From a virus: a DNA stretch of 34,222 nucleotides. Numbering within the stretch: the stretch's first letter is position 1; each line of letters starts with the position of its first letter. The notes beneath the pieces were generated by a model. It had not been told where the DNA came from and ran no database searches. It saw only the letters and a program-made list of their open reading frames with translations. A program made the position numbers and the translations under genes. The stretch is taken from UHGV virus genome UHGV-0086334; one strand, 5' to 3'. Below are positions 5,031 to 34,222 of the stretch, piece by piece.

Positions 5031-5092
5031 TTCCGCGCAGCCGCAAAATCGGTTGCCGGGATTTGCACCCCGGATATCTAAAAGGCGACAAC

Positions 5093-5112
5093 GACGCGCC
5101 AGCGTCTTTTTT
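5093..5112 (+). terminator. Intrinsic terminator-like hairpin
   Basis: GACGC-gcca-GCGTC followed by TTTTTT, about 60 nt downstream of the promoter and before the antirepressor gene. Confidence 0.5.
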
Positions 5113-5272
5113 ATTGTCGTGCGCACAGCCACATCCGCGATTTATGGTGGGGCGTGTAGGGGAGTCGAAAGGCTCGCCGGGTCCTTTTAGCCGGTAGTGC
5201 AAACCCTGCATGTCTCACCACCCAAAGATTTGCACCTGAGGGGGGTGATTATCCGACTAAAAGGAAATCGCT

Positions 5273-9548: not shown

Positions 9549-9628
9549 TTCAGTTCAGCACACTAATAATGGTAACCATGACCGCAGCAAACACGATCCC
9601 CGAAATATTCATTACTGCCATATATTGG

Positions 9629-10480
<852 letters not shown>

Positions 10481-10512
10481 TCATGTCAATTGACAACTTA
10501 TAGTTCCCACTA

Positions 10513-10606
10513 GTTAGCATTAAGATTTTTACAGTGAGGAATAATCAATGTCCGCTCCTGGCACAGAGTGGACGAACAACTGAAGACCCGCTGTGAGCGA
10601 GAAACA
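10513..10606 (+). repeat. Structured cassette-boundary repeat, copy 1 (most diverged)
   Basis: GTTAGC motif, hairpin GTCCGCT/AGTGGAC (10550..10573), then ACTGAAG and CGCTGTGAGCGAG shared with copies 2 and 3. Confidence 0.55.
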
Positions 10607-10760
10607 GACATCACAACTCACAAGGATTATACGCAGTTTGTTATCCAAACATACGGGTGCCAAGTGTTATAATCCGGCACTAACAGCATGATGCTTGGAA
10701 GTACATTTAAATGTAAAATGATAGTGTACTCTGACTGAAGCCTGGTAAAAAGGAACTGAT

Positions 10761-12140: not shown

Positions 12141-12248
12141 GGCAGTAGAAAATAAAGTGAAAATATATTCACTTAAGAAAGATGGTTCTAAAGGGACATA
12201 ATTAGATTAACCCAGTGACCTGTTCCCCTTGAATCAACATAGGCTGTT

Positions 12249-12320
12249 GTTAGCTACTTCCGCTTCTGACACGAAGCGGACAAAAAACTGAAGGTCCGCT
12301 GTGAGCGAGGAGCGGAAGTT
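12249..12320 (+). repeat. Structured cassette-boundary repeat, copy 2
   Basis: GTTAGCTA, 8-bp-stem hairpin TCCGCTTC/GAAGCGGA (12259..12280), ACTGAAGG, second hairpin TCCGCT-gtgagcgagg-AGCGGA, ends GCGGAAGTT. Confidence 0.6.
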
Positions 12321-12463
12321 GATTTTATTGAGAGTAAAACAGATCTATAGTAAATGGTCTTGTTATGTAGGGGATTTACGATAATTTTACTACCAAGGTC
12401 GTTAAAAATTCATATGAAATATCAACGATAGTGACCTATTTTTCATAAGGCCACTATATGAAT

Positions 12464-13126
12464 CTATTGTTCTATTTTAATTTTATTTAACGTTATAGGG
12501 GCTGGGTTATAGCTAGGTATATATAATATCTCACTCCCTAGCTTGCGCTCTTTTATATTTACTTCTTTAGCGACAAGGTTACCGTCATACAACCTAATAA
12601 TCACGTAGTCTTTAGATTGATCATGAAAGTAACTAAATTCTTTTTTTAATGACGCTTGTTGTAAACCAATTAAGAAACTAAATGTCATTATGGCAATAAG
12701 GGGAAGGGTTGCAGACCAAATTAAATAACTTGGATTACGTTTATGATTTTTAACAATTTTGTATATAATATAAGTAACTGTTGCTATCGATAAACTTAAA
12801 ACGAAAAAACCACCATATTCAGTCTTATGTCTATAAGACTGAACAATAAAAACAATCATGATAAAAACTGTAACTGCAGTAACTTTAACTGCTTTTACTT
12901 TACTTTCAGGCCATGGAGTAAAAAACATCAACATAACACAAATTATATTAAAAAATAAATATGACATACCCACGAATAAAAATTTAGAATCTAACGTTAT
13001 AAACTCCATAGGATAATCAAAATGATATGCATAGCCATATTCAAATGAAATTGCAGACATATAAGATAGAACAGTTATTGCCAATATTAGCAAGGCTTCC
13101 TTGCTTTTTATAAAGTCAATTATCAT
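12464..13126 (-). CDS. Integral membrane protein (220 aa), AT-rich cassette 2
   Basis: Several hydrophobic helices in N-terminal 150 aa followed by a soluble C-terminal domain. Confidence 0.55.
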   Translation of the reverse strand: MIIDFIKSKEALLILAITVLSYMSAISFEYGYAYHFDYPMEFITLDSKFLFVGMSYLFFNIICVMLMFFTPWPESKVKAVKVTAVTVFIMIVFIVQSYRHKTEYGGFFVLSLSIATVTYIIYKIVKNHKRNPSYLIWSATLPLIAIMTFSFLIGLQQASLKKEFSYFHDQSKDYVIIRLYDGNLVAKEVNIKERKLGSEILYIPSYNPAPITLNKIKIEQ

Positions 13127-13441
13127 GATGTTTGTTTTTTAATGAATAAAATAATCACTTACCAGACAGTTAATCTTCTTAATTGTCATTGTGTTAAGTG
13201 AACCCCGAATTTTTCTCAGTTCTTCTGAAGAAGTCCTCACGTATATGATAACAACCAAAAAAATTTTTTTCACTAATTATACTAAAATCCATGAAGAATC
13301 AGCAGTGTGAAGCAGGGAGAATCTCTAACAAGAGACGCCGTCATTTTGTAAATTTCCCGGCAAACCAGATCATCTGCTTTTAGACATAGGATTCAATGTG
13401 CTATTACGGCGAGCTGTTCCCACAGATTGATGGAGATAGAT

Positions 13442-13519
13442 GTTAGCAATGCCCGCTTTTGGTACGAAGCGGGCAAGCTAACTGAGTTGAAATTTCGCTG
13501 TGAGCGAGGAGCGGAAGTT
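13442..13519 (+). repeat. Structured cassette-boundary repeat, copy 3
   Basis: GTTAGCAA, hairpin GCCCGCTT/AAGCGGGC (13451..13474), ACTGAG, TCGCTGTGAGCGAGGAGCGGAAGTT nearly identical to copy 2. Confidence 0.6.
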
Positions 13520-13604
13520 CGTAATTGTTCTCGCAGCTAGGGTAGCTAAAAGACACGGCAGGCAAATGTCTACATGTAGGATACACTTGCTATTATCAAG
13601 AATT

Positions 13605-14384
13605 TTAGTCCTGAAGCATTTTAACTTTCTTCTCATGTTTTTTATATTCGCCATTTATCCATTCAGGTTCTTCCCGAATAGCTGAGCGCATACAGTATGT
13701 TGGGATATCATTCCAGAAAGCTGTAATCGCATCTGCAAACTCTATAAACTGTGTTTCTGTAACCTCAAGTTGCTCATGACGTAGACTAAATCTGTAGCCT
13801 CTTGGAATATTGATATCCTGATAATACTCAGGATGCGCGACGGAAAGCACCCGATGGGCATGGCCATCACCGTGCTTATAAACATTAACCACTTGGCGAC
13901 AGGCATCGATTTTTTCGTAATAAGCCTTGCTGGTGATATCCATCCCAATCCATTCTAGAATTTCAATTAGCCTTGGGAAGCTAATGTCCCAGATCATCGA
14001 TGTTACGGATTTAGCGTCGAGCCAATGGCTGAATTCTCTGATACACTTCTCTCTAAGTTCCTTGTCGAACTGATGAAACATTCCTGCTGTCAGAGCAAGT
14101 GAAACCGTATTTTTCATATCACTGAGAGCAATCCAATGTGAAATTCCTTCATCATGAGCCTGTTCACAGATAGCCCCTTCGTCGTCATAATCGGGGTCAA
14201 AACGCTTACCGGCGGCCTCATAGTAATCTTGTTCTCTCTGCCTGGCTTCAGCTTCAAGATCAGAATCGCTAAACTGCGAAAATAGACGCTTTCTGGCTTC
14301 AGCAACATAAAAATTGTGTTTGTCGAGGAAGTAAGACCGATCAATGGTTGCAAAATAAAAAAGTGAAAAATCTTTGTTGCTCAT
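13605..14384 (-). CDS. Hypothetical protein (259 aa), AT-rich cassette 3
   Basis: ORF track; acidic, no recognisable motif. Confidence 0.5.
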   Translation of the reverse strand: MSNKDFSLFYFATIDRSYFLDKHNFYVAEARKRLFSQFSDSDLEAEARQREQDYYEAAGKRFDPDYDDEGAICEQAHDEGISHWIALSDMKNTVSLALTAGMFHQFDKELREKCIREFSHWLDAKSVTSMIWDISFPRLIEILEWIGMDITSKAYYEKIDACRQVVNVYKHGDGHAHRVLSVAHPEYYQDINIPRGYRFSLRHEQLEVTETQFIEFADAITAFWNDIPTYCMRSAIREEPEWINGEYKKHEKKVKMLQD

Positions 14385-19180: not shown

Positions 19181-19423
19181 GGTTGTTGTTTTTCTGTAAG
19201 GATATCAATAAGTTCAAGATATATACATATATGGAAAACTTGTGCGGTAGTCTATCGATACAGCGCAAAAGGATGACTCGCTACCAAAGTGAAAGCTTAC
19301 GCTGATAATCAGATACACAAAGCTGAGGTATGCAAACAAGTACGTCGCGAGGCTACAGTTGAGTTTAATGAACCTGATGCGAGCCCCCGATTCCTGTCCC
19401 GAAAGGGAGATAGCCCCCCTGGT

Positions 19424-19470
19424 CGCGGGTCCTTTCTGGTATCCAAAATACCGAGGGTCGGTAGACGCGC
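19424..19470 (+). promoter_or_regulatory. Putative cos region of the resident prophage (diverged)
   Basis: GCGGGTCCTTTCTGGTATCC resembles my recollection of lambda cosQ-proximal sequence; GGGTCGGTAGAC sits where the 12-nt cohesive end would be, about 70 bp before the small terminase. Confidence 0.35.
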
Positions 19471-21950: not shown

Positions 21951-22183
21951 TGACCGCGCGCGAGGTTTTAACAGAACGGCTGCTGGAAGCGGAAATCGCT
22001 CTGCACAAATTATTAACGGGTAAATCGACCGTGTCGCTGTCTCACGGCGATTCAGCGGGAAATAACCGGAGCTATCAGTACTCCCAGGCGAGTATTGAAC
22101 AGCTCCGAACGTACATTATCGAGCTGAAATCACAGCTCGGTCTGAGTACGGGACGCCGCCGTCCCGTGGGAGTTCGATTATGA
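21950..22183 (+). CDS. W: Head-tail joining protein, lambda gpW-like
   Basis: 77 aa; LHKLLTGK...YIIELKSQLG...RRRP resembles lambda gpW; gene order A-W-B. Confidence 0.75.
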   Translation: MTAREVLTERLLEAEIALHKLLTGKSTVSLSHGDSAGNNRSYQYSQASIEQLRTYIIELKSQLGLSTGRRRPVGVRL

Positions 22184-23003
22184 CTGCTCCACAGCAGCTG
22201 CTCGGGCCTGACGGTAAAACGCCACTACGCCGTTTTGCGGGGTATAACGGCGGCGGTCCCGGTTTCGGTGGCCAGCTGATTGACTGGAATGCGCCACAGC
22301 AAAGCGCCGATGCGGCACTGCTGCCTAATTTTTATCGCGGTAACGCGCGAGCAGACGATCTCGTTCGCAATAACGGTGTCGCGTCGAACGCCGTGCAGCT
22401 GCACCAGGATCATATTGTCGGCAATCTGTTTAAATTGAGTTATCGCCCTAACTGGCGTTACCTAGGGATATCTCGCGAGGACGCCAGGGCGCTGGCGCGT
22501 GACGTTGAGGTCGCGTGGACTGAATACGCTGAGGACCCTCACTGCACGATTGATATCGAGCGGAAACGGACGTTCACAATGATGATCCGCGAGGGTGTGG
22601 CCACTCACGCGTTTAACGGTGAAACCTGCGTACAACCGGTCTGGGAAAGCAGTACCGGTAGCGTTTTTCGGACGCGATTCAAAATGGTTTCGCCGAAACG
22701 GATTCGAAATCCGGGTTACGCAGCTGACACCCGATTTCGCCGCGCCGGTGTTGATATCGATAAAAATGGAGCCGCAGTGGGCTACTGGATAGCCGAGGAC
22801 ACCTATCCACTCGGTGGAATCGGCAAGTGCCGGCGTATACCAGCGCAGCTCAGCAGCGGCAGACACGCATTCATTCACATATTCGAGCCGCTCGAGGACG
22901 GACAGACCCGCGGAGATAACATTTTCTACAGCGTGATGGAGCGTCTGAAAATGCTCGACACGCTGCAGCAAACACAACTGCAGAGCGCCATTGTGAAGGC
23001 GAT
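22180..23003 (+). pseudogene. B: Portal protein (lambda gpB-like), 5' fragment interrupted by insertion
   Basis: LLGPDGKTPLRRFAGYNGGGPGFGGQL, LLPNFYRGNARADDLVRNNG, KRTFTMMIREGVATHAFNGE, DGQTRGDNIFYSVMERLKMLDTLQQTQLQSAIVKA match lambda gpB; after codon ...VKA the frame reads IYVYHLTVVARIVRQLH and stops at 23055. Confidence 0.85.
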
Positions 23004-23010
23004 TTATGTC
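22996..23010. other. attL core of inserted element
   Basis: AAGGCGATTTATGTC here versus AAGGCGATGTATGCC at 33898..33912 (13 of 15 identical), at the exact points where portal homology breaks and resumes. Confidence 0.6.
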
Positions 23011-23132
23011 TATCATCTCACCGTAGTTGCCCGCATCGTTCGCCAACTCCACTGAAACCCTTGCTGCGTCTGGAATGTCGTTTTCCATGCTTTTGATGAC
23101 CGTTCATCACCCTTCCAGTTTTTCGCGGTTTT

Positions 23133-23185
23133 GTGTATTGCAATGTGTATTGCAAATTGGCGATCGGGATGGGTGTGTATTGCAA
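23133..23185 (+). repeat. Integrase arm-type repeats (attL side)
   Basis: Three copies of TGTGTATTGCAA at 23133, 23144 and 23174, just upstream of the integrase. Confidence 0.55.
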
Positions 23186-23203
23186 ATCTCTTGAGGGCTT
23201 TTA

Positions 23204-24445
23204 ATGGCTATTGAAAACAAACTCAGTGACAAACTGTTAAAGAGTCTTGTCGGAAAACGGCAGGACAAACAAAAAACAATAGCGGATGGGCGCGGGTTGT
23301 CTGTGCGTGTAAGCATGGTTGGGGGGATCAGCTTTGTTTTTTACTATCGTCTTGGTGGCAGGGAATCCCCTCCGGTATGGCTTACACTTGGTCGCTATCC
23401 TGACATGTCTCTTGCAACGGCCAGGCGCATGCGTGATCAGTGCCGTGAATGGCTGGCTGAAAATCTGGACCCCCGCAGGCAAATAAAACTTGCTGCCGAA
23501 AAAACTATGCAACCAGTGACCGTAAGGGATGCGCTGTTTTACTGGTACGACAATCACGCCACAACAGCCAGAAAAGAGCATGAATATTTAATAAAACGAT
23601 TTGAAAAGCATATCTTCCCCTATATCGGTGATATGGCTATAGAACAGTGCAAATTACACACATGGCTTACCGTCTTTGACAGGATCAAAAAAAATGCGCC
23701 TGTTATGTCTGGTGCAATTTTTCTTGATATCAAACAGGCGTTGCGTTTTTGTCGCGTCAGGCAATACATCGCGTGCGATCCCTTTGGAGATATTAACGTA
23801 AGTTATGTCGGGCGCTCATCCGGTATAAGGGATCGCGTTCTTAATATCAATGAAACCGCTGATGTATGGTCTTATGCTTACGGTAATAATTTGCTAACTC
23901 TGTCATCAATATATAACCGAAGAATAATGGTTATCTGCCTGGTGTTTGGTTGCCGACAGCAGGAGGCGAGGCTATCCACTTGGGACGAATGGGATTTAAA
24001 AAACTGGGTATGGACAGTCCCAAAAGAGCACAGCAAAAACAAGGAGGCTATAGTAAGGCCTGTTCCTGACGGAATAAAACAATGGATCGTTAATCTTTAC
24101 GCAGAAACAAAAAATCGCGGTTATGTTGTCGGTTGTGCTTTGCAAAGGGCGACAATAACAGGGGCTGCAAACAGAATATGCAGGCGTCTTGGTCATGATA
24201 CTAATGGCTTGTGGTGCATACATGATTTCAGGCGCACATTTTCCACTACGCTTAATGATATGGGGGCGGATCCTTATATTGTCGAACTTCTTTTAGGTCA
24301 TAAAGTGAAAGGGGTTGCTGGTGTTTACAATAAAAGCAGGCATATAAAGAAAAAACTTGAGGTGCTTAATATGTGGGTTAATTACCTTAATACGATAGCA
24401 GGATTTAACAACAACGTTATCGAGCTTAATAAAGAGGTGGTGTGA
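23204..24445 (+). CDS. int: Tyrosine integrase, P4-type
   Basis: 413 aa; N-terminal LSDKLLKSL...DGRGLSVRVS arm-binding-type domain, catalytic blocks HDFRRTFST and LLGH...VYNK. Confidence 0.9.
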   Translation: MAIENKLSDKLLKSLVGKRQDKQKTIADGRGLSVRVSMVGGISFVFYYRLGGRESPPVWLTLGRYPDMSLATARRMRDQCREWLAENLDPRRQIKLAAEKTMQPVTVRDALFYWYDNHATTARKEHEYLIKRFEKHIFPYIGDMAIEQCKLHTWLTVFDRIKKNAPVMSGAIFLDIKQALRFCRVRQYIACDPFGDINVSYVGRSSGIRDRVLNINETADVWSYAYGNNLLTLSSIYNRRIMVICLVFGCRQQEARLSTWDEWDLKNWVWTVPKEHSKNKEAIVRPVPDGIKQWIVNLYAETKNRGYVVGCALQRATITGAANRICRRLGHDTNGLWCIHDFRRTFSTTLNDMGADPYIVELLLGHKVKGVAGVYNKSRHIKKKLEVLNMWVNYLNTIAGFNNNVIELNKEVV

Positions 24446-24446
24446 T

Positions 24447-24704
24447 ATGGCAATTTATTCTCTTGTTGATGAAAACGATTTGCGCACAATGAAGGACATT
24501 GATCGGTTCATTCGTGAAAAAGAGTGCATAGCACTTACCACGCTGGCAAACTCAACACGCTGGAAAATGGAGCAGGCAGGTAAATTCCCGCGACGTATCA
24601 AGATCGGTGAACGTGCTGCAGGGTATCGACTTTCAGAGGTTCAGGCATGGATCCGTGGTGAGTGGCATCCTGGATGGAAACCTGGAAAAACAAAACAGCA
24701 ATAA
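24447..24704 (+). CDS. AlpA-family DNA-binding regulator/excisionase-like
   Basis: 85 aa; RWKMEQAGKFPRRIKIGERAAGYRLSEVQAWI is the AlpA-type winged HTH; directly follows int. Confidence 0.7.
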   Translation: MAIYSLVDENDLRTMKDIDRFIREKECIALTTLANSTRWKMEQAGKFPRRIKIGERAAGYRLSEVQAWIRGEWHPGWKPGKTKQQ

Positions 24705-24715
24705 CCAGTAAATAA

Positions 24716-24740
24716 TGCCCCTCATCACGAGGGGTTTTTT
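24716..24740 (+). terminator. Intrinsic terminator
   Basis: CCCCTC-atcac-GAGGGG followed by TTTTTT. Confidence 0.6.
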
Positions 24741-24760
24741 GTCTATAAGGTAAAAACGCG

Positions 24761-25339
24761 ATGAATAAAAATATTGCCGTGACGGGCAAGGGGTACGCTC
24801 GTCCAGTGAAAAAATTCTGCGATATTCGTGATCTCGTCGTTCTGCGCTTTGATAGTGTGAACGTTCGTGTGGTGTATCTGAACGGCGATCCGTGGTTTGT
24901 TGCAAAAGATGTTTGTGCTGCGCTGGAACTAACCAATTCGCGTACGGCGTTGCAGATGCTTGATGATGATGAAAAGGGAGTAAATTTAACTTACACCCCA
25001 GGAGGAAATCAGAATATGAGAATTATCTCTGAGTCAGGTTTCTACAAACTAATAGCCCGCAGCCGCAAAGCAACGACGCCTGGCACATTTGCTCATCGTT
25101 TCAGTAACTGGGTATTCAGAAATGTGATACCAGGTATCAGAAAAACGGGGACTTATGGTATCCCGTGGGGTGCATTACAGGATTTTTCCCGCCGTAAAGA
25201 GCAATATCAAATAAGTGCCAGCGAGAAGGGGAGGGAGCTACAGGCATGTAAGCGCAAAAAGCGTGAGCTGGAGGAAGAAGAAAAAACGCTGATACGTGAA
25301 TATCAGCCTGAGTTTTACTTTGGTAACCGCATTCAGTGA
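24761..25339 (+). CDS. Bro-N domain protein (antirepressor-like)
   Basis: 192 aa; DPWFVAKDVCAALEL, ESGFYKLIARSRK, FSNWVF..VIPGIRKTGTYG fit the Bro-N domain. Confidence 0.7.
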   Translation: MNKNIAVTGKGYARPVKKFCDIRDLVVLRFDSVNVRVVYLNGDPWFVAKDVCAALELTNSRTALQMLDDDEKGVNLTYTPGGNQNMRIISESGFYKLIARSRKATTPGTFAHRFSNWVFRNVIPGIRKTGTYGIPWGALQDFSRRKEQYQISASEKGRELQACKRKKRELEEEEKTLIREYQPEFYFGNRIQ

Positions 25340-25348
25340 CAAAACAAA

Positions 25349-25369
25349 GGCGACCGCAAAAGGGTCGCC
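25349..25369. terminator. Stem-loop between convergent genes
   Basis: GGCGACC-gcaaaag-GGTCGCC right after the Bro-N stop; no clear T-tract. Confidence 0.4.
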
Positions 25370-25435
25370 AGTGGGAACAAGGGAAAACAAAAGCATCACC
25401 AACAATGCCACATTTGCGGCTGGTGGGCAATGTGA

Positions 25436-25615
25436 TCAGTCAGATTTGGTTCGTTCCAAGGTTTGCAACGAGAGCTTTTTCCTGTGCTCTTTAAGGAATT
25501 TCTCAAGAGCAAACGAACAAGGTGCGAATCTTTCTGATTCATGTTCATGCGCTATATTTTTGCGTCGTCTCTTACGAGTTGGTGATGGTGTTTTGGTTGA
25601 TTCTGTGTCGCTCAT
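25436..25615 (-). CDS. Small basic hypothetical protein (59 aa)
   Basis: My reading of the minus strand: ATG at 25615, AGGA RBS, MSDTESTKTPSPTRKRRRKNIAHEHESERF...; downstream of the repressor gene on the same strand. Confidence 0.25.
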   Translation of the reverse strand: MSDTESTKTPSPTRKRRRKNIAHEHESERFAPCSFALEKFLKEHRKKLSLQTLERTKSD

Positions 25616-25672
25616 GGTGCTGTCCTGTAAAGCAATGCGCCTGCGTTCCTCAAACTATGGCGCTGATATTGG

Positions 25673-25978
25673 CTATTCATGCTCTTTGACCTTGCGTCGC
25701 TGGAGTTCTTCACGCGCGACGGTGACGAGTTGCCCGATCTCCTCGGCTGCTTTGATGCCGATTTGTTCGACCTTAGCCAGGGCATCCAGTGACGACACAA
25801 GGGGATTTTCTCCGCTGCCTTCTGCTTGGCGGCGGGCTATTTCTCCGCGCATGGCGGTTACGATAAATCCGGCATTGCTTTCACCGTCCAGCTTAACGGA
25901 TTCCATCCCTTGCATAACATCTAGTGGGACTCTGACAGTTGTCAGTTGTGATTTTGCGTTTTTGTTAGCCGTTGCCAT
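25673..25978 (-). CDS. Putative repressor, possibly ribbon-helix-helix
   Basis: 101 aa; strong AGGAG RBS; divergent from the operator-bearing promoter at 26040; TTVRVPLDVMQGMESVKL is compatible with an RHH beta-strand/helix. Confidence 0.45.
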   Translation of the reverse strand: MATANKNAKSQLTTVRVPLDVMQGMESVKLDGESNAGFIVTAMRGEIARRQAEGSGENPLVSSLDALAKVEQIGIKAAEEIGQLVTVAREELQRRKVKEHE

Positions 25979-25999
25979 TTCTGAAACTCCTAATCATCG

Positions 26000-26077
26000 G
26001 TGTGTTTCAGTATACACAAAAAAAGAAATACAAAAAGCCTTGACGTGTGTTTCATGCGCTCATAACATGAAACACAC
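26000..26077. promoter_or_regulatory. Operator/promoter between divergent satellite genes
   Basis: Perfect inverted repeat GTGTGTTTCATG-n9-CATGAAACACAC (26045..26077) overlapping TTGACG -35 (26040..26045); third half-site GTGTGTTTCA at 26000..26009. Confidence 0.55.
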
Positions 26078-26168
26078 CGAAAGGATTGTTGAAATACAAA
26101 GAGCAACGCCCCGCAGTGCTGGGAACACATACGGGGCGTCTAACCAACAACGTAAACTAGGAGCCGTT

Positions 26169-26366
26169 ATGGTTGCTGTAAATCATATACCACACCTTGT
26201 ACACACACAAACGGCCTTTGTGTGGCGTTTTCTGGCACTGAGTGCCGGAGAATCTCAAATCATCCACGTAACCGCCTGGACGGAACGCGAAGCGCGTAGC
26301 CGTTGCCCGTCCGGTTGTGTTGCTGTATTCGCTGCAAAAATCCGCCAGGGAGTGAGTCATGCTTAA
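26169..26366 (+). CDS. Small hypothetical protein (65 aa), first gene of rightward satellite operon
   Basis: ATG 26169 preceded by AGGAG; it is the 3' part of the long ORF 25296..26366, whose upstream part I regard as non-coding. Confidence 0.45.
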   Translation: MVAVNHIPHLVHTQTAFVWRFLALSAGESQIIHVTAWTEREARSRCPSGCVAVFAAKIRQGVSHA

Positions 26367-26544
26367 AACCTTCCGTGTATTTGCCCGAGCTGTTAACCCA
26401 ATAGGCCACACAATTGGTATCGCTCAGAATGTGAAGGCTGTTAATGTTCAGACGGCTATTGCTGCGGTGAGAAGCGAATCATCAGAATATGGCTTATCAC
26501 AAGTCATTATTTCAGCAGTGTATGAATTAAAAGAGGTGCATTAA
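26359..26544 (+). CDS. Small hypothetical protein
   Basis: 61-aa ORF, start overlapping upstream stop. Confidence 0.4.
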   Translation: MLKTFRVFARAVNPIGHTIGIAQNVKAVNVQTAIAAVRSESSEYGLSQVIISAVYELKEVH

Positions 26545-26735
26545 TGCAGGAAATTACATTACACGAAGCCGCTGAACGTGCGCACCAGACAGAAATTATT
26601 TGCCGCCTTCTTGAGGTATACCCGAACAAAATTACAGATGCTGATATATCCGCACTGGCGAGCCTACTGGCGCGTCTTTCGGGAAGTGTCGCTAGTTTTT
26701 TGATTGAGGAAGAAAGTAAGCTGGTGGGGGATTAA
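26544..26735 (+). CDS. Small hypothetical protein
   Basis: 63-aa ORF, ATGA-type overlap. Confidence 0.4.
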   Translation: MQEITLHEAAERAHQTEIICRLLEVYPNKITDADISALASLLARLSGSVASFLIEEESKLVGD

Positions 26736-26957
26736 ATGAATACAGAACGGGAAGTCTTTTTTAAATTGTTAGCATGTGCAGAAAGTTCATTAACTTTAAA
26801 TAATTCAGCAAAAGCAATATTAAATATGTGGCTTGATTGCATAAATGACAATGAAGATGCAAATATTGCTTATGGCCTGTTGTCACTTATTGATGAATCA
26901 GCAGAAAAACTCAATGACGCAATAAATAGTGCCCTGCTATCAAATAAGTCGAGTTAA
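26736..26957 (+). CDS. Small hypothetical protein (AT-rich)
   Basis: 73-aa ORF, markedly more AT-rich than its neighbours. Confidence 0.4.
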   Translation: MNTEREVFFKLLACAESSLTLNNSAKAILNMWLDCINDNEDANIAYGLLSLIDESAEKLNDAINSALLSNKSS

Positions 26958-26974
26958 GTCGAGGAATAAATAAT

Positions 26975-27274
26975 ATGGAAATGAAAAATTCTGGCTTTAT
27001 TGCCAGCGGCCCCGCTCGACCTGAATTTATGAACGGCGATATTTACCGCGATAAATACGGCGGCACGGTAACGATTAAAGGCGTGGCAGAACGGCGCATC
27101 ACTTACCGCCGTGAGGGGTATAGCTATGACTGCGTGATGCCTGTTTATCAGTTCCGGCGTGATTTTTCCCTGGTATATGCCGCACCCCGCAGTAAATCCA
27201 TCAGCAGGGAAAAAGCGTGGGGAAATATCCAGAAAATGAAAACCATGATTAACGGATTCAGAGGTAAAAAATGA
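26975..27274 (+). CDS. Hypothetical protein
   Basis: 99-aa ORF with GAGGAA RBS; stop overlaps primase start. Confidence 0.45.
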   Translation: MEMKNSGFIASGPARPEFMNGDIYRDKYGGTVTIKGVAERRITYRREGYSYDCVMPVYQFRRDFSLVYAAPRSKSISREKAWGNIQKMKTMINGFRGKK

Positions 27275-29025
27275 AACTGGCACCGAACGTAAAACAGCAG
27301 TCACGCGGCATAAAACACAAAGGAACAGAAGTAATTATTTTTGCGGGTAGTGATGCCTGGGCACACGCGAAACAATGGCAGGAACATGATGCGCGTATGG
27401 CCGGAGATAATGAGCCTCCTGTGTGGCTTGGGGAGCAGCAGCTATCCGAACTGGATAATCTGCAAATTGTGCCGGAAGGCCGAAAATCAGCACGCATATA
27501 CAGGGCCGGATATCTTGCGCCTGTAATGATAAAGGCGATTGGTCAGAAGCTGGCGGCAGCAGGCGTACAGGATGCAAATTTTTATCCTGAGGGTATGCAC
27601 GGCCAGGAGGTGCAGAACTGGCGCGAATATCTGGCCCGTGAACGCCAGAATCTTTCTGATGGTCTGGTCATTGAGCTTCCGGTAAAGCAAAAGGCGCAAC
27701 TTTCGCAGATGGCGGACAGTGAGCGCGCGCAGTTGCTTGCCGATCGCTTTGATGGCGTTTGCGTACATCCTGAAAGTGAAATCGTTCACGTATGGCGCGG
27801 CGGGGTATGGTGTCCGGTCAGCACAATGGAACTTAGCCGCGAAATGGTGGCGATCTATTCAGAGCACAGGGCCACTTTCAGCAAGCGCGTAATCAATAAC
27901 GCCGTGGAAGCGTTAAAAGTTATTGCCGAACCAATGGGCGAGCCGTCTGGCGATTTGCTGCCGTTCGCCAATGGTGCGCTTGACCTGAAAACGGGGGAAT
28001 TTTCCCCGCACACGCCGGAGAACTGGATCACCACGCACAACGGCATTGAGTACACGCCACCAGCACCAGGGGAGAACATCCGCGATAACGCGCCAAACTT
28101 TCATAAATGGCTTGAGCACGCAGCCGGAAAAGACCCGCGCAAGATGATGCGTATATGTGCCGCGCTGTACATGATTATGGCGAACCGGTACGACTGGCAG
28201 ATGTTTATTGAGGCCACCGGAGACGGCGGGAGCGGTAAAAGTACATTCACACACATAGCCAGCCTTCTGGCAGGGAAACAGAACACGGTAAGCGCTGAAA
28301 TGACATCGCTTGATGATGCTGGTGGACGTGCGCAGGTTGTCGGGAGTCGTCTTATCGTCCTGGCTGACCAGCCGAAATATACAGGCGAAGGAACGGGCAT
28401 CAAGAAAATCACAGGCGGCGACCCCGTGGAAATTAACCCGAAATATGAAAAGCGTTTCACGGCGGTAATCAGGGCGGTGGTGCTGGCGACCAACAACAAC
28501 CCGATGATATTCACCGAACGGGCCGGAGGTGTGGCACGTCGTCGCGTGATTTTCCGTTTCGACAATATCGTCAGTGAGGCCGAAAAAGACAGGGAGCTAC
28601 CGGAAAAGATTGCGGCTGAAATCCCCGTTATTATCCGCCGATTGCTGGCGAACTTTACCGACCCTGAGAAGGCACGGGCTTTACTACTGGAACAGCGTGA
28701 CGGTGATGAAGCACTGGCAATAAAGCAACAGACGGATCCGGTTATTGAGTTTTGCCAGTTCCTGAATTTTCTGGAGGAAGCGCGCGGCCTGATGATGGGT
28801 GGCGGTGGTGATTCAGTGAAGTACACGACCAGGAACAGCCTTTACCGCGTCTATCTGGCGTTTATGGCATACGCGGGCAGGAGCAAACCGCTAAACGTGG
28901 CTGAGTTCAGCAAGGCCATGAAGCCAGCGGCGAAAGTTTACGGGCATGAATATATTACGCGAAAAGTTAAGGGAGTAACGCAGACCAACGCAATTACAAC
29001 AGACGATTGCGACGCGTTTTTATAA
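27271..29025 (+). CDS. Primase-helicase (P4 alpha / PICI Pri-Rep-like), SF3 helicase domain
   Basis: 584 aa; Walker A GDGGSGKSTF, RLIVLADQ Walker B-like, D5-type C-terminal region; followed by iterons. Confidence 0.85.
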   Translation: MKLAPNVKQQSRGIKHKGTEVIIFAGSDAWAHAKQWQEHDARMAGDNEPPVWLGEQQLSELDNLQIVPEGRKSARIYRAGYLAPVMIKAIGQKLAAAGVQDANFYPEGMHGQEVQNWREYLARERQNLSDGLVIELPVKQKAQLSQMADSERAQLLADRFDGVCVHPESEIVHVWRGGVWCPVSTMELSREMVAIYSEHRATFSKRVINNAVEALKVIAEPMGEPSGDLLPFANGALDLKTGEFSPHTPENWITTHNGIEYTPPAPGENIRDNAPNFHKWLEHAAGKDPRKMMRICAALYMIMANRYDWQMFIEATGDGGSGKSTFTHIASLLAGKQNTVSAEMTSLDDAGGRAQVVGSRLIVLADQPKYTGEGTGIKKITGGDPVEINPKYEKRFTAVIRAVVLATNNNPMIFTERAGGVARRRVIFRFDNIVSEAEKDRELPEKIAAEIPVIIRRLLANFTDPEKARALLLEQRDGDEALAIKQQTDPVIEFCQFLNFLEEARGLMMGGGGDSVKYTTRNSLYRVYLAFMAYAGRSKPLNVAEFSKAMKPAAKVYGHEYITRKVKGVTQTNAITTDDCDAFL

Positions 29026-29040
29026 TTTTTTGTAAAAGCC

Positions 29041-29262
29041 ATCTACCCCATCTACCTGAACGAAATAAACGCATATTATTCAACATGATAAGTGGGTATA
29101 GGGCTAGGTAGAAGGCTAATAAAAGCTCTCTACCTCTTCTACCTGATTTTATCAGTTTCAGGTAGCAGGGTAGACGGCAGGTAGAGGAGTCAAAAAAGCT
29201 ATCTACCCGCTGAAAGCGTCGCCATTACTGACATGATGAGTATTCGGGTAGATGGGTAGAGG
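29041..29262. repeat. Iteron-type replication origin
   Basis: About 12 direct and inverted copies of (A/T)CTACC or GGTAG(A/T) right after the primase-helicase gene. Confidence 0.65.
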
Positions 29263-29313
29263 GGGGGAGGCACAACTAAAAACTTTTTAAACGAGGGGGG
29301 GGGGTGAAAATAA

Positions 29314-29628
29314 ATGCGCATACATAAAAATCACTTAACAAACATGCCAGCCGAAAACATGAATCAGGGGCGACAAATGACCAAAATTCGCAGAGACAGA
29401 ACACAGGCAAAATATAAAGCGTTAGACATGACAGAGCTTTCCTTAAAGGTGGCAATCAAAGCGATAGACCACCACACACGGGCAGGATACGCGAAGGAAC
29501 ATCCCGACCTGATAAGCGCATTTATGACCACAGCAGCGGCAAACTTTGCCACGCTGACAGAACGGGAGATTGCCGAAGCGGAACAGGTGACAACCATCAA
29601 TGTTAAAACCGGAGAGCAGACAGCATGA
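29314..29628 (+). CDS. Hypothetical protein
   Basis: ORF track 104 aa; likelier start ATG 29377 (AGGGG RBS). Confidence 0.45.
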   Translation: MRIHKNHLTNMPAENMNQGRQMTKIRRDRTQAKYKALDMTELSLKVAIKAIDHHTRAGYAKEHPDLISAFMTTAAANFATLTEREIAEAEQVTTINVKTGEQTA

Positions 29629-30047
29629 CAGCACAGATAGCGGCTTACGGGCGGCTGGTGGCTGACCCGCAGTTAAAGACCACCAGCAAAGGGACACAAA
29701 TGGCGATGGCGAGTATGGCGGTTCCCCTGCCGTGCAGCCAGGCAGATGACGGAACGGCGACGATGTGGTTATCCGTCCTGGCGTTTGGCAGACAGGCCGA
29801 CGCACTGGCAAAACACCACAAAGGCGAACTGGTGAGCGTGGCGGGTAACATGCAGGTAAGCCAGTGGACAGGCCAGAACGGCGAAACGCGGCGGGGCTGG
29901 CAGGTTATCGCAGACAGCGTAATCAGTGCGCGAACGGCGCGACCGGGCGGCAAAAAAGGCCAGCAGGGGCAGGCCACTGACGCACTGAACAGGGCAAAAC
30001 AACAGTCGGGGAATGATGATCCGTACGGCGATAATATACCGTTTTAA
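29625..30047 (+). CDS. Single-stranded DNA-binding protein (SSB-like)
   Basis: 140 aa; YGRLVADPQLKTT, TMWLSVLAFGRQA, Gly/Gln-rich linker and acidic tail ending DDPYGDNIPF. Confidence 0.7.
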   Translation: MTAQIAAYGRLVADPQLKTTSKGTQMAMASMAVPLPCSQADDGTATMWLSVLAFGRQADALAKHHKGELVSVAGNMQVSQWTGQNGETRRGWQVIADSVISARTARPGGKKGQQGQATDALNRAKQQSGNDDPYGDNIPF

Positions 30048-30063
30048 ATTCTGCAAACAAAAA

Positions 30064-30092
30064 GATGCCGGAAAAAAATAGATTTTCCGGCA
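30064..30092. terminator. Stem-loop, possible terminator
   Basis: ATGCCGGAAAA-n7-TTTTCCGGCAT inverted repeat after the SSB stop. Confidence 0.45.
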
Positions 30093-30258
30093 TGCTACAT
30101 AAATCCCGACCAAAGGAAGTAAATACATTAACACGAATTATCAGCACTGAAGTTGTTACGGCATATTTTATACAACATTGCACTTGGTTGCATGTGTTCG
30201 CATAGCAGACATCGGTAATAGAATATATTCACAATTATTTGTAATGAATGTAAAGAGG

Positions 30259-31305
30259 ATGAGTATGGTTGATTTATATTCGCCTACACAGCTTGTGCAG
30301 GTGGCTAATGCTGAAGATGTGCAAAAAAAATTAAATGCGTTGTTTACCAGTTTGTTTTTCACTCGCTCGGTAATGTTTGAATCGAGAGACATTATTCTTG
30401 ATACGATCGACGATCCAAATATCCCGATCGCGGCGTTTTGCTCTCCTATGGTGGGCAGTAAAGTTTCACGAGATGAGGGATACGAATCAAAAACAATTCG
30501 TCCAGGTTATATGAAGCCGAAAAGCAGCATTGATCCAAATAAGTTAGCTGTGCGCCCTGCTGGTGTGTCACCTGAGCAATACAATGCTTTTGGGGCGCGT
30601 AATATTAAAGTTAAACAGGCGATTGTAAATCAGGCTAAAGCTATTCGTGCACGTATTGAATGGCTTGCTGTTCAGGCAATCACAACGGGGAAAAATATCA
30701 TTGAGGGCGATGGTATTGAACGTTATGAGCTGGACTGGAATATAAAACCACAAAATATCATCACTCAGTCTGGCGGTACTGAGTGGTCAGGTAAGGATAA
30801 AGAAACTTTTGATCCAAATGATGATATTGAGAGCTACGCAGAATTTAGTGAGGGCGTCACTAATATCATCATTATGGGTGGTAATGTATGGAAGAAATAC
30901 CGTTCATTCAGAGCGATAAAAGAGGCTTTGGATACCCGTCGTGGTTCTAATTCCGAACTGGAAACGGCCCTTAAAGACCTTGGTGATTCGGTGAGTTTTA
31001 AAGGGTATATGGGCGATGTTGCGATTGTTGTTTACAGCGGGCGTTATACCGACGAGGACGGAACAGAAAAACATTTCCTTGATCCTGATTTGATGGTGCT
31101 TGGCAATACGGCTCTTCAGGGGATTGTCGCCTATGGCGGTATTCAGGATCCGGAGCTAATCCGAATGGGGCTGACTAAAGCCGAACTTGCACCGAAAAAC
31201 TATATTGTGCCTGGTGATCCGGCTATTGAATATGTGCAGACACATTCAGCACCACAGCCAATACCGGCCCGCATCAATCGTTTTGTTACCGTTCGCATTG
31301 GCTAA
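30259..31305 (+). CDS. E: Major capsid protein, lambda gpE-like
   Basis: Starts MSM as lambda gpE does; IITQSGGTEWSGKDKETFDPNDDIESYA, FRAIKEALDTRRGSNSELETALKDLG, GDVAIVVYSGRY, MVLGNT match my recollection of lambda gpE. Confidence 0.85.
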   Translation: MSMVDLYSPTQLVQVANAEDVQKKLNALFTSLFFTRSVMFESRDIILDTIDDPNIPIAAFCSPMVGSKVSRDEGYESKTIRPGYMKPKSSIDPNKLAVRPAGVSPEQYNAFGARNIKVKQAIVNQAKAIRARIEWLAVQAITTGKNIIEGDGIERYELDWNIKPQNIITQSGGTEWSGKDKETFDPNDDIESYAEFSEGVTNIIIMGGNVWKKYRSFRAIKEALDTRRGSNSELETALKDLGDSVSFKGYMGDVAIVVYSGRYTDEDGTEKHFLDPDLMVLGNTALQGIVAYGGIQDPELIRMGLTKAELAPKNYIVPGDPAIEYVQTHSAPQPIPARINRFVTVRIG

Positions 31306-31314
31306 GGGGGAGCA

Positions 31315-31656
31315 ATGGCTACTCATTACACTGAACTCATGGCTGGCACTGAAGCACTGGTGACTACGCTGGGGATATTTTCAGCTAATAAAGGGGTAAT
31401 TCCTGCATTTACGCCACTGATGCAGGAAGATGCAACAGGTGCACTGGTGGTATGGGATGGTTCGAGCGTAGGTAAAGCGGTTTATGTTTCCGCTGTACAA
31501 ATCGACACCGCGAAAAAAATACAGGCTCAGGTCTATAAGACAGGTGTCTTAAATGTTGATGCTCTGAACTGGCCTGAGTCTGTTAAAGAACTGTCAGTAA
31601 AGGTTGCAGCGTTTGTTGGCTCAGGTATTTCTGTTCAGCCGCTGGCTCGTGTGTAA
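31315..31656 (+). CDS. D: Capsid decoration protein, lambda gpD-like
   Basis: 113 aa; FTPLM, LVVWDGSSVGKAV, YKTGV, WPES, AAFVGSGISV match lambda gpD blocks. Confidence 0.75.
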   Translation: MATHYTELMAGTEALVTTLGIFSANKGVIPAFTPLMQEDATGALVVWDGSSVGKAVYVSAVQIDTAKKIQAQVYKTGVLNVDALNWPESVKELSVKVAAFVGSGISVQPLARV

Positions 31657-31667
31657 AGGGGGATACA

Positions 31668-32051
31668 ATGCAGAATGATTACAATGACCTTAAGCCAATT
31701 GCCGAAATGATGTACCCGAATCCAGCTGTAGAGGAATTAAAAGCTATCGCTGACAAAATGTGTTTAAGCGAGCGCCTTGTTGATATGAATCAGGTGATGG
31801 AAATTACAACCCTGAGTCGTCGTACACTGCTAAACCTTGAGGCTAGTGGAGAGTTCCCGGAGCGTGTGCAGGTTACGGAAGGGCGTAAGGCCTGGTATTT
31901 AAGTGAAGTGATCGACTGGATAAATAATATTCCTCGCGCTTCTGAATATTGCCGCGTACCTGTCCCAAAAAAGCCAGATGCGGCGCTATGCCTCAAGATT
32001 GAGCGTGTACGCCGCAATGCACGGGATGGTCGCTATAAGCTGATTGGTTGA
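31668..32051 (+). CDS. AlpA-family HTH protein
   Basis: 127 aa; VMEITTLSRRTLLNLEASGEFPERVQVTEGRKAWYLSEVIDWI is an AlpA-type HTH; AGGGGG RBS. Confidence 0.6.
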   Translation: MQNDYNDLKPIAEMMYPNPAVEELKAIADKMCLSERLVDMNQVMEITTLSRRTLLNLEASGEFPERVQVTEGRKAWYLSEVIDWINNIPRASEYCRVPVPKKPDAALCLKIERVRRNARDGRYKLIG

Positions 32052-32074
32052 TGAAATTAGGGCCCGCTCTGGCT

Positions 32075-32135
32075 GGCGGGTCCTTTCCGGTGATCCGGTA
32101 GGCTACGGGGCGGCGACCTCGCGGGTTTTCGCTAT
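32075..32135 (+). other. Lambda-type cos site of the inserted element
   Basis: GGGTCCTTTCCGGTGATCCGGTAGGCTACG then GGGCGGCGACCT (32108..32119) then CGCGGGTTTTCGCTATTTATGA; the 12-mer is the lambda cohesive-end sequence as I recall it, and the flanks match lambda's right and left ends. Confidence 0.75.
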
Positions 32136-32252
32136 TTATGAGCCTTTTTCGGGTGCTGGTGGTGGTTTTGTTGTTCGCTCTATCTCTATGAATAAAAAGG
32201 AAAAGATAAAGCCAATACACCAACCTGAAACATTACTTAAGTGGGGATATTG

Positions 32253-32795
32253 ATGAAATCGCACCTGATGAACAAAAAAAACATGGCGCAAAGCTGCCGT
32301 GTAAGTGCGACAGCGTTCGACAAGTGGGGAGTGACTCCCGTTGAACGTAAAGGCCGCGAGGCGTTTTATGATGTTGCCAGCGTAATAGACAATCGGGTTA
32401 GCAATGCAATTAACCAGATTACAGACGACAAAGGCGAGATTGATGATGATGAACTCCTACGAGTCAGGATCAGATTGCTGACAGCACAGGCAGAGGCGCA
32501 GGAGCTTAAAAACGAGCGCGAACGCGGCGACGTTATTGATACAGCGTTTTGTATATACGTGCTTTCAAAATTGGCGAGTCAGATTTCTTCAATCATGGAC
32601 AGCCTGCCGCTTGCCATGACAAGGAAGTTTCCCGACATGAAGCCGTCTATGCTGGATGGACTGAAAAAAGAAGTTATCAGAGCCTGTAACGCATGCGCAA
32701 AACTTGACGAAAACATACCGCTGATGCTGTCCGATTATCTGATGGAAACTGCCGGAAACGTACCGGATAAGTTGCAGCCGAATAAAGATAAGTAA
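32253..32795 (+). CDS. Nu1: Terminase small subunit, lambda Nu1-like
   Basis: LLTAQAEAQELKNERERGDVIDTAFCIYVLSKLASQISSIMDSLPLAMTRKFPDM...KLDENIPLMLSDYL aligns closely with lambda Nu1 C-terminal half; N-terminus MNKKNMAQ resembles Nu1 MEVNKKQLA; start could be ATG 32268. Confidence 0.8.
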   Translation: MKSHLMNKKNMAQSCRVSATAFDKWGVTPVERKGREAFYDVASVIDNRVSNAINQITDDKGEIDDDELLRVRIRLLTAQAEAQELKNERERGDVIDTAFCIYVLSKLASQISSIMDSLPLAMTRKFPDMKPSMLDGLKKEVIRACNACAKLDENIPLMLSDYLMETAGNVPDKLQPNKDK

Positions 32796-32806
32796 CGTAG
32801 TACGCT

Positions 32807-33088
32807 ATGACTGAATCCGAAATACTGCGATTAATCCGCCGTGCTTGTGGAATCAGCAAGCAGCATGACGAACAGGCCACGCAGCCGGACAGCGTGACCG
32901 CAGATAATTATGTGCGTGTAGTGGCTGAGGTGATGCGCCGTGACGGTATTGAGCTTAACGGCGTGGATATGCGCAACATACGAACAAGAGTCCTTGAGTT
33001 GCTGGCATATCGTCGCCGTTCTCAACAACGGAGGGAGAGCGCGAAAAATACTTACCAGTGGAAGAAGCCGGAACGATTGCGGCGGTAA
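32807..33088 (+). CDS. Hypothetical protein
   Basis: 93-aa ORF, Arg-rich C-terminus. Confidence 0.4.
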   Translation: MTESEILRLIRRACGISKQHDEQATQPDSVTADNYVRVVAEVMRRDGIELNGVDMRNIRTRVLELLAYRRRSQQRRESAKNTYQWKKPERLRR

Positions 33089-33344
33089 CTTGCTGATATT
33101 CCCGATAACGCAAAATTGCGCTGGCTGACTTGTTGCATTGCAAAAAGTTAAGCAGGAAGGCACGGCCTGTAAGATGGGATGCAGTAAGTAGTTCAAGGCT
33201 ACCTTGTGCTGGCACGCACAGTTAAGCCGTCGGTGCTGGATATCCCCCACTGGGGGAAAAGCTGGCTACATCCCTCACATCTGAGGACTGATAACGCGAC
33301 ATTGCGCTGGCTGGCAAAGTGCAAAATTGCACGATGGCCTAACC

Positions 33345-33494
33345 CATTGATTATTTCGAAAACCTGCAATGCAGGAAATCGGGGAAGTAAGCCTAAGCTA
33401 TTGATTGTTTCGAAAACCCCCATTGGGGGATGTCGGGAAAGTAAGACTAACCCATTGATTCTTCCACAATCCTCAATTTGAGGAGGCCGGAACG
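33345..33494 (+). repeat. Three phased 54-bp tandem repeats, each with a central 13-bp palindrome
   Basis: Unit CATTGATT-n-TTCGAAAACC-palindrome-GGGAAGTAAG; palindromes CCTGCAaTGCAGG (33363), CCCCCAtTGGGGG (33417), CCTCAAtTTGAGG (33471) exactly 54 bp apart. Confidence 0.6.
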
Positions 33495-33801
33495 TCTACA
33501 TAGCTGCATCGCCGTAATGATGATTCAGCCCACCAGCCAAATCAGCACAGCAACGACAGAATAGCCCGACACAGAAAAACCACGAATATGGGGTTTTTGT
33601 TATGACATGGTCATGATGACCACTCATACAAAACAGGTAAAGCCCACCAGCCTGATTAAAGGTTAACCGGAAAAAAGCCAGGTATCCAATCTCGATATGG
33701 GGATCCCTATATCGACATTAACGCCCACTAAAACTGTGCATATATGCATAGAAAAAGCATCCACCAGCTTTATGACGGATGCCGCTCATCTTATAAATAA
33801 T

Positions 33802-33824
33802 CGTGTATTGCAGTGTGTATTGCG
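33802..33824 (+). repeat. Integrase arm-type repeats (attR side)
   Basis: CGTGTATTGCA and GTGTGTATTGCG, same motif as the attL-side repeats. Confidence 0.5.
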
Positions 33825-33897
33825 ACTCCTTTAAACGATAGGTCTGAGCATTCGTAATGTACTGTTTTTAAATTTTATTTTTTCCTGTCTTTTCATA

Positions 33898-33912
33898 AAG
33901 GCGATGTATGCC
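33898..33912. other. attR core of inserted element
   Basis: AAGGCGATGTATGCC; portal reading frame resumes here (K-A-M-Y-A-A-T-I-E-S-E-L-D). Confidence 0.6.
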
Positions 33913-34167
33913 GCGACAATCGAATCAGAGCTCGACAGCCAGCAGGCGTTTGAATATATCGCCGGCGCGGGTACTGATATCGACTCGAACCCACTGAATT
34001 CGTTTATTCAGAGTTACGTGACGTACTACAACGGCGCAAACATTAAATTAGGCGGCGTGAAAGTCCCTCACCTGCACCCCGGCGACAAACTCAGTTTACA
34101 GACCGCTCAGAACGCTGACGCTGGTTTCAGTTCGCTGGAAAAATCACTCCTGCGTTACGTTGCCGCT
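33898..34167 (+). pseudogene. B: Portal protein (lambda gpB-like), middle fragment, truncated at its 3' end
   Basis: [44 protein letters not shown] continue the lambda gpB alignment exactly where the 5' fragment stopped; ends at a TAG supplied by the following IS-like sequence. Confidence 0.85.
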
Positions 34168-34222
34168 TAGACTGGCCCCCTGAATCTCCAGACAACCAAT
34201 ATCACTTAAATAAGTGATAGTC
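34168..34222 (+). mobile_element. Terminal ~55 bp of an IS2-like insertion sequence (continues beyond window)
   Basis: TAGACTGGCCCCCTGAATCTCCAGACAACCAATATCACTTAAATAAGTGATAGTC matches my recollection of the IS2 terminus; portal homology ends abruptly here. Confidence 0.65.

Follow-up and report, generated by a model that had tools for sequence, protein, structure and literature searches.

The viral genome UHGV-0086334, analyzed here as a single window of 34,222 nucleotides, harbors a 10,902-bp insert, within an element spanning positions 22996-33905, that splits the portal gene of a lambda-family prophage. The element is very probably a helper-embedded phage-inducible chromosomal island (HE-PICI) at the site designated B:Phage_portal_2:241, with an integrase of its own and with the same orientation as the portal gene in which it resides. 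It is a confirmed example of an already published satellite class, at a published site, and is itself a published element. HE-PICIs were defined by Tommasini, Mageeney & Williams 2023 (NAR Genom Bioinform 5:lqad036; PMC10111431), who assigned 491 of them to 14 sites within nine cognates of lambda late genes, with 97% falling in genes A, B, C and E. Their catalogue (SuppFile1, PMC10111431) lists 11-kb Escherichia coli elements under names of the form '...11.B_Phage_portal_2_241', with the identity block 'aaggcgat'. The novelty claimed in an earlier, sequence-only reading of this DNA is not borne out, since phenomenon, site and element are all in print (PMC10111431).

The portal open reading frame (ORF) that begins at 22180 proceeds as far as ...LQSAIVKA, becomes foreign after 23003 and reaches a stop after 17 unrelated codons, and the missing continuation, MYAATIESELD..., is found from 33904 onwards. 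Both junctions of this lambda gpB-like gene are as the sequence-only reading described them. The shared core that it reported is also present, although not at the proposed length of 15 bp: exact identity between attL and attR extends over 8 bp, AAGGCGAT, at 22996-23003 and 33898-33905, with 5 matches among 7 further positions (13/15). The insertion is site-specific at AAGGCGAT, and the target gene receives no replacement sequence from the element at attL, only this short identity block. The crossover codons, K273-A274-M275, lie near profile position 241 of Phage_portal_2.

When the flanks are joined in silico at the 8-bp block, a single open portal frame results, and AAGGCGATGTATGCC is the sequence predicted for the repaired junction upon excision. 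The joined protein matches the Pfam family Phage_portal_2 in one colinear stretch (residues 31-362 on profile positions 3-318, E=1e-72) and, over all 362 amino acids, is 98.3% identical to a portal that is intact in E. coli TUM13936 (L004), so that the fragments derive from one portal and not from different portal families. The proposal that precise excision would rebuild the portal is thus supported by the in silico frame, but in this copy the gene would still be cut by an IS2 element. The helper large terminase and gpW genes lie directly upstream of the split portal, and int, alpA, pri, the capsid gene and the small terminase gene all occupy the plus strand, which is that of the portal.

The same arrangement recurs widely in E. 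coli. By megablast, the element is found in 51 complete genomes, among them those of strains 20Y000092 and EC93, with 99.1-99.7% identity among the best 30 of the 51. At both loci that were inspected, it interrupts a pseudogene annotated as 'phage portal protein' within a lambdoid late operon, flanked by large terminase and head-tail joining genes on one side and by S49 protease, decoration and capsid genes on the other, and the attL and attR cores are identical to those of the window. The element-side attL is also present on 19 IMG/VR contigs, in all of which portal sequence lies across the junction, in several distinct alleles. The window's exact junction ORF occurs on 13 public contigs, one of which (L007) is a variant that shows 99% identity and has another early region, and an ENA metagenome contig (L006) is 100% identical to window positions 12180-33055. 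The integrase gene itself is found at full length, with 99.4-99.9% nucleotide identity, in around 60 complete E. coli genomes, and the copies checked for context are at the portal site. Among GTDB species-representative genomes the element-side attL was not found, which probably reflects just an E. coli representative that does not carry the element and says little about range.

Unoccupied sites also occur: 442 complete E. coli genomes have a portal, at 90% identity or more, that continues unbroken through the junction. The checks suggested by the sequence-only reading, namely intact lambdoid portals, the same element at the same codon elsewhere, and pairs of occupied and empty sites, have therefore all given a positive answer (51 complete genomes and 19 IMG/VR contigs occupied, against 442 complete genomes empty), and none of the observations that it named as refuting was made. 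Its claim that the attachment site is a conserved coding sequence of a phage structural gene likewise holds, and the insertion recurs at the same codon in several portal alleles. The two closest unoccupied relatives (L003, 4386-4420; L004, 19035-19070) harbor synonymous changes in the core, AAGGCCAT and AAAGCGAT as against AAGGCGAT. Such changes may bear on susceptibility to integration, and would fit an escape from it, although two examples prove nothing.

The ends of the element display the repeats associated with this class. The motif TGTGTATTGC, with at most one mismatch, has nine matches in the window where 2.5 are expected, a number reached in 0 of 100 shuffles, and five of the nine are found co-oriented at the element ends (23132, 23144, 23174, 33802 and 33814), in agreement with the earlier claim of one arm-type repeat at both ends. 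A doubled motif is present on both attP arms, as it is in HE-PICIs. On the left arm it starts 132.5 bp from the core center, and on the right arm it starts around 99 bp and ends around 78 bp before the core center. The doubled motif unique to HE-PICIs, tgTGTATTGCantgTGTATTGCa, is placed, relative to the attP center, 81 +/- 2 bp upstream and 132 +/- 2 bp downstream (PMC10111431).

The closest published relatives are the HE-PICIs of the B:Phage_portal_2:241 site (Eco14781.11, Eco10269.11), which come from the same host species, are about 11 kb in length and use the same block, AAGGCGAT. They also have in common with the window element a doubled TGTATTGC motif on both arms and co-orientation with the portal gene. 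The element side of the published Eco10269.11 attL is identical to window positions 22996-23103 over the roughly 108 nt shown. The window copy differs from these elements in its surroundings: its helper-side attL allele is missing from the published attL alignment, its portal is additionally cut by IS2, and its helper head module is divergent.

The genes of the element (Table 1) follow the four-zone layout of PICIs, from int and alpA through a Bro zone and a replication zone (pri, ori) to a late zone. The integrase, regulators, primase-helicase and single-stranded DNA-binding protein (SSB) named in the sequence-only reading are confirmed by Pfam, and a repeat search shows iteron-like repeats at the probable origin; that list had missed a gpE-like capsid protein, a gpD-like decoration protein, a Nu1-like small terminase and a cos site. 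The element ORFs scanned against Pfam and PHROGs include none for portal, protease, large terminase, tail or lysis functions, which agrees with what had been proposed. The int-alpA-Bro-pri-ori-late order and the lack of the principal virion and lysis genes support the assignment as a phage satellite. The ATCTACC repeats lie immediately downstream of the primase gene, a position that matches the location of ori stated for Gram-negative PICIs (PMC10111431). The YlcI/YnfO gene is the sole clear minus-strand gene of the element. The satellite capsid and decoration proteins are, respectively, 43% and 40% identical to those of a lambda-type helper. The second AlpA protein carries a single RefSeq accession, WP_001178671.1, in the near-identical copies L001 and L002 and in 11capE, the type element of the class (Eco567.11.E_Phage_cap_E_80, from E. 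coli NRG857c). No regulatory RNA, of the C4/CI type or any other, was detected in the element by Rfam at E<=1.

Table 1. Features of the satellite and of the split portal gene, in window coordinates.
Feature	Position	Strand	Basis
5' fragment of helper portal gene (lambda gpB family), ending in attL core	22180-23003	+	ORF translation; Phage_portal_2; intact relative
attL identity block AAGGCGAT, crossover region	22996-23003	+	exact match to attR block
Doubled TGTGTATTGC motif, left arm	23132-23153	+	about 132 bp downstream of attP center
Single third TGTGTATTGC copy, left arm	23174-23183		
Tyrosine integrase, Arm-DNA-bind_3 and Phage_integrase	23204-24445	+	Pfam
AlpA-family regulator, presumed excisionase/activator	24447-24704	+	Pfam Phage_AlpA, E=5e-14
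Hairpin terminator 3' of first alpA	24717-24735		terminator scan
Bro-N domain protein, anti-repressor-like (Bro zone)	24761-25339	+	Pfam Bro-N, E=5e-20; PHROG anti-repressor families
YlcI/YnfO-family small protein	25673-25978	-	RefSeq annotation of identical element; phrog_6522
Icd-like protein, three small unknown ORFs and DUF4222 protein, upstream of primase	26169-27274	+	RefSeq; Pfam DUF4222; PHROGs of unknown function
Primase-helicase (D5_N, DUF5906, Pox_D5)	27271-29025	+	Pfam
Iteron-like direct repeats, core ATCTACC, probable replication origin	29033-29208	+	repeat search (families D3, D12)
SSB	29625-30047	+	Pfam SSB, E=6e-16
Major capsid protein, lambda gpE family	30265-31305	+	Pfam Phage_cap_E, E=3e-41
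Head decoration protein, lambda gpD family	31315-31656	+	Pfam HDPD, E=4e-14
Second AlpA-family regulator	31668-32051	+	Pfam Phage_AlpA, E=8e-9
cos site: cosQ-like sequence and lambda cosN GGGCGGCGACCT (32108-32119)	32077-32152	+	comparison with lambda-type helper
Small terminase, lambda Nu1 family	32253-32795	+	Pfam Phage_Nu1, E=4e-24
Three tandem 54-nt repeats, short palindrome in each	33337-33498	+	repeat search, family D1
Doubled TGTATTGC motif, right arm, upstream of attP center	33802-33823	+	
attR identity block AAGGCGAT	33898-33905	+	exact match to attL block
3' portal fragment, attR core to ...LLRYVAA, cut by IS2	33898-34167	+	translation, comparison
IS2 left end inserted in portal gene; window ends inside IS2	34168-34222	+	genome matches

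The late zone houses the features that are likely to govern packaging. The satellite cos site was identified only by comparison with the lambda-type helper L001, whose cos region upstream of nohD it matches at 87% identity over 76 nt; after around 32145, the expected location of cosB, the two diverge. The satellite small terminase is 38% identical to the helper Nu1/NohD protein and is covered by Pfam over Phage_Nu1 profile positions 80-162 only; because the match is confined to the C-terminal half, the N-terminal DNA-binding part appears to have diverged. The satellite protein would bind the satellite's own sequence beyond cosN, and probably recruits the gpA-type large terminase of a helper to satellite DNA at the shared cosN. 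Four units of the element amount to 43.6 kb and would fit a lambda-size head, and packaging of concatemers has been noted for a model E. coli PICI (PMC10111431). The gpE- and gpD-like satellite proteins may join the capsid or alter its assembly. Contig L007 (Logan ERR13599729, 37 kb), which shares this helper-satellite junction, stops 14 nt beyond the satellite cosN (window position 32133); this end was considered as that of a packaged linear DNA and rejected, an assembly break at a cos repeat shared with a resident lambdoid prophage being likelier. To the right of the small terminase, the three 54-nt repeats sit in the non-coding right arm and have no Rfam match at E<=1, and near them a 24-nt sequence that contains a palindrome (GATAACGC..ATTGCGCTGGCTG) occurs twice, at 33104-33127 and 33290-33313.

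By analogy with 11capE, a life cycle can be proposed in which the integrated element blocks production of the helper portal protein. Upon helper induction, the whole composite would excise and replicate, and helper late transcription from Nu1, A, W and the interrupted B' gene would read into int-alpA. Between a hairpin within the portal ORF (22312-22324) and the start of int at 23204, a distance of approximately 880 bases, the terminator scan predicts none on the plus strand. Int and AlpA would then recombine attL with attR, yielding a repaired portal gene and a circular satellite, which would replicate from the iteron origin by means of its own primase-helicase and SSB. For 11capE, mitomycin C treatment makes the composite excise and replicate, followed by precise excision of the satellite, with both attB and attP detected, and a switch-like control of helper morphogenesis has been proposed for HE-PICIs as a group (PMC10111431). 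The sequence-only reading arrived at the same idea of a switch, which finds support in the 11capE excision sequence, but in the present copy IS2 blocks repair of the portal by satellite excision alone.

The prophage around this copy is not a usual helper. Its large terminase, portal and gpW are 43%, 65% and 35% identical, respectively, to those of the lambda-type helper in L001, yet despite the 65% portal identity the peptide at the integration site, LQSAIVKAMYAATIESELD, is conserved. Its cos site (19395-19470) has a cosN, GGGTCGGTAGAC, that is related to the satellite GGGCGGCGACCT but unlike it, and its small terminase gave no Nu1 match in the Pfam scan. Comparison of the helper part of the window with the satellite (blastn, E<=1e-3) gave no match, so that the two share no detectable cos. 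In relatives of the prophage, the baseplate and tail module is P2-like. None of the 51 copies in complete genomes matches the query upstream of its position 871 (window 22870) at megablast level, and so none of them is in this helper background there. The last 58 bases of the window (34165-34222, including 3 portal bases) are found in multiple copies in 4,699 of 5,426 E. coli genomes, and at the locus checked an 'IS3-like element IS2 family transposase' lies immediately downstream of the match. The 100%-identical ENA contig continues for only around 59 nt more, a pattern typical of assemblies that break off in a repeat.

Several of these points weigh against the interpretation of the element as an HE-PICI at work in its helper. 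The upstream doubled motif, at around 78-99 bp depending on the reference point, could be matched only approximately to the published distance of 81 +/- 2 bp. With its own cosN, a small terminase without a Nu1 match and a large terminase of only 43% identity, the surrounding prophage may not package the satellite, and because IS2 lies in the portal gene, satellite excision alone cannot restore a working portal in this strain. A search of IMG/VR and JGI metagenome contigs for TCTTTTCATAAAGGCGATTTATGTCTAT, the attP junction expected of an excised form, found nothing, but as these are assemblies the negative evidence is weak. Even with 11capE no virions were recovered (PMC10111431), so that transfer is presumptive throughout the class. 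Truncated helpers and 'abandoned' HE-PICIs have already been described (PMC10111431), and with IS2 in the portal and a head module unlike that of the usual lambda-type helpers, the cycle is probably broken in this copy.

These same features raise the possibility that the insertion is a stranded one, in which the integrase struck a conserved portal motif in a prophage that does not package the satellite, leaving the latter as no more than an inactivator of the portal gene. We regard this as plausible, while leaning away from it. The mismatch between a lambda/Nu1-type satellite packaging module and a prophage with another cosN and small terminase speaks for it, as do the conservation of LQSAIVKAMYAATIESELD in so divergent a head module, the absence of this background upstream of window 22870 from the complete-genome copies and the helper-side attL allele missing from the published alignment; off-target integrations and 'abandoned' HE-PICIs have also been noted (PMC10111431). 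The junction ORF is, however, found on 13 contigs, including the variant L007 with its different early region, and is not a single accident. The helper retains a large terminase of the gpA family, its relatives possess a full lambda-type head module, and compatibility between helper and satellite cannot be read from sequence alone.

The remaining alternatives concern what the element is and whether the junctions are real. A P4-like satellite or a capsid-forming PICI (cf-PICI) is brought to mind by the P4-related, Arm-DNA-bind_3 type of integrase, by the D5_N/P4-alpha-like primase, and by the capsid, decoration and small terminase genes, which resemble those of cf-PICIs. Yet the P4 markers Sid, Psu, Delta/Ogr and Cnr/Eps have no match among the scanned ORFs, the cos site is of the lambda type (GGGCGGCGACCT) and not of the P2/P4 type, and gene order and late zone match those of 11capE. 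The cf-PICIs, reportedly described by Alqurainy et al. in 2023 (reference 41 of PMC10111431), are said to carry portal, protease, large terminase and head-tail connectors, whereas the window element has none of these among its scanned ORFs, and this assignment is very improbable. An assembly chimera, or a non-specific recombination that joined a genomic island to a degraded prophage, might be suspected of a window that apparently comes from a metagenome assembly, given the 100%-identical ENA contig, and that ends in the repeat IS2. A chimera is refuted by the copies in complete genomes, as the identical junctions recur in 51 finished chromosomes as well as on the 19 IMG/VR contigs, and with an exact 8-bp block at both junctions and flanks that rebuild one portal, this explanation as a whole is scarcely credible.

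The helper prophage has further features outside the split operon. Its early region includes a YdaT_toxin-like protein (562-1038) and a DnaB-type replicative helicase (2306-3697). In the same prophage, isrK (5037-5112) and a C4 antisense RNA (5140-5225) lie directly upstream of a gene for an ORF6N-domain protein (5273-6067), a combination that looks like an immunity module of the P1/P7 style, with antisense RNA and antirepressor. A PD-T4-3 GIY-YIG defense protein (9629-10480, minus strand; PADLOC E=7e-138) adjoins an HNH_2 protein (8313-9548, minus strand). The defense genes are followed by a block of low guanine-plus-cytosine (GC) content (32-37% GC) at around 10500-13500, and there are unknown ORFs at 10761-12140 (plus), 12464-13126 (minus) and 13605-14384 (minus). 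The stretch from 8313 to 14384 may represent a defense or moron hotspot of the helper.

With the class established in 2023, the window constitutes a confirmed instance and not a discovery, but there are points worth keeping. The satellite has its own Nu1-like small terminase beside a lambda cosQ/cosN, with a differing putative cosB region, and here it lies in a head module that differs from the usual helpers in large terminase, small terminase and cosN. Together with the core changes in unoccupied relatives, these traits suggest questions about helper range and about escape from integration. Embedding in a helper late gene links satellite and helper in cis, in that no virions can be formed before the satellite leaves, and the embedded satellite gains helper-driven replication and late transcription at no cost. 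One tentative and rather doubtful suggestion is that integration range is wider than packaging range, with an integrase that spans divergent lambda-family portals and a cos site and Nu1-like small terminase that fit lambda-type helpers only. If this is true, then in prophages such as the present one the satellite would either disrupt the portal gene of a non-cognate host prophage or use its own small terminase and a private cosB to reprogram a distant large terminase, and neither role is described in the HE-PICI paper (PMC10111431).

Among known systems, 11capE provides the most complete comparison. It has the same order of int, alpA, YlcI/YnfO, Icd-like, DUF4222, primase, SSB, capsid, decoration and second AlpA genes, and the late zone from SSB to cos (29443-32140) is 92.5% identical to it at the nucleotide level. 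The integrases are 54% identical over their full length (E=3e-170); a distant DNA search with the window integrase gene returned only short matches of 60-80% to other integrases, too diverged for placement in a clade. In contrast to the portal target of the window element, 11capE targets codon 80 of capsid gene E through a different core. A small terminase is missing from 11capE, which has a 258-bp cos region in common with its helper (PMC10111431). At its right end 11capE has HEPN and DUF262 genes, where the window element has the Nu1-like small terminase and the three 54-nt repeats, and blastn against the 11capE locus finds nothing past 32140 apart from one short capsid-gene cross-match. The HEPN and DUF262 genes (L011, 10237-11953) are a likely defense pair. 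It would seem that these satellites have a slot for exchangeable cargo at the right end.

EcCICFT073, a Gram-negative PICI, redirects packaging through Rpp. Islands of this type (Fillol-Salom et al. 2018, 2019, cited in PMC10111431) have in common with the window element the int-alpA-pri-ori backbone, and they resemble it further in cos packaging by lambdoid helpers and in the frequent presence of a capsid gene (PMC10111431). EcCICFT073 is without terS (PMC10111431), whereas the window element has its Nu1-like small terminase. The EcCICFT073-type islands occupy chromosomal sites and meet their helpers in trans only, whereas the window element is embedded in its helper.

Regulated gene integrity, also called 'active lysogeny', is known from skin in sigK of Bacillus subtilis and from phage phi10403S in comK of Listeria, where timed, precise excision restores the interrupted gene. 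The HE-PICI arrangement differs from these in that the split gene belongs to a helper phage, and in that the regulation serves the satellite and not the host cell (PMC10111431).

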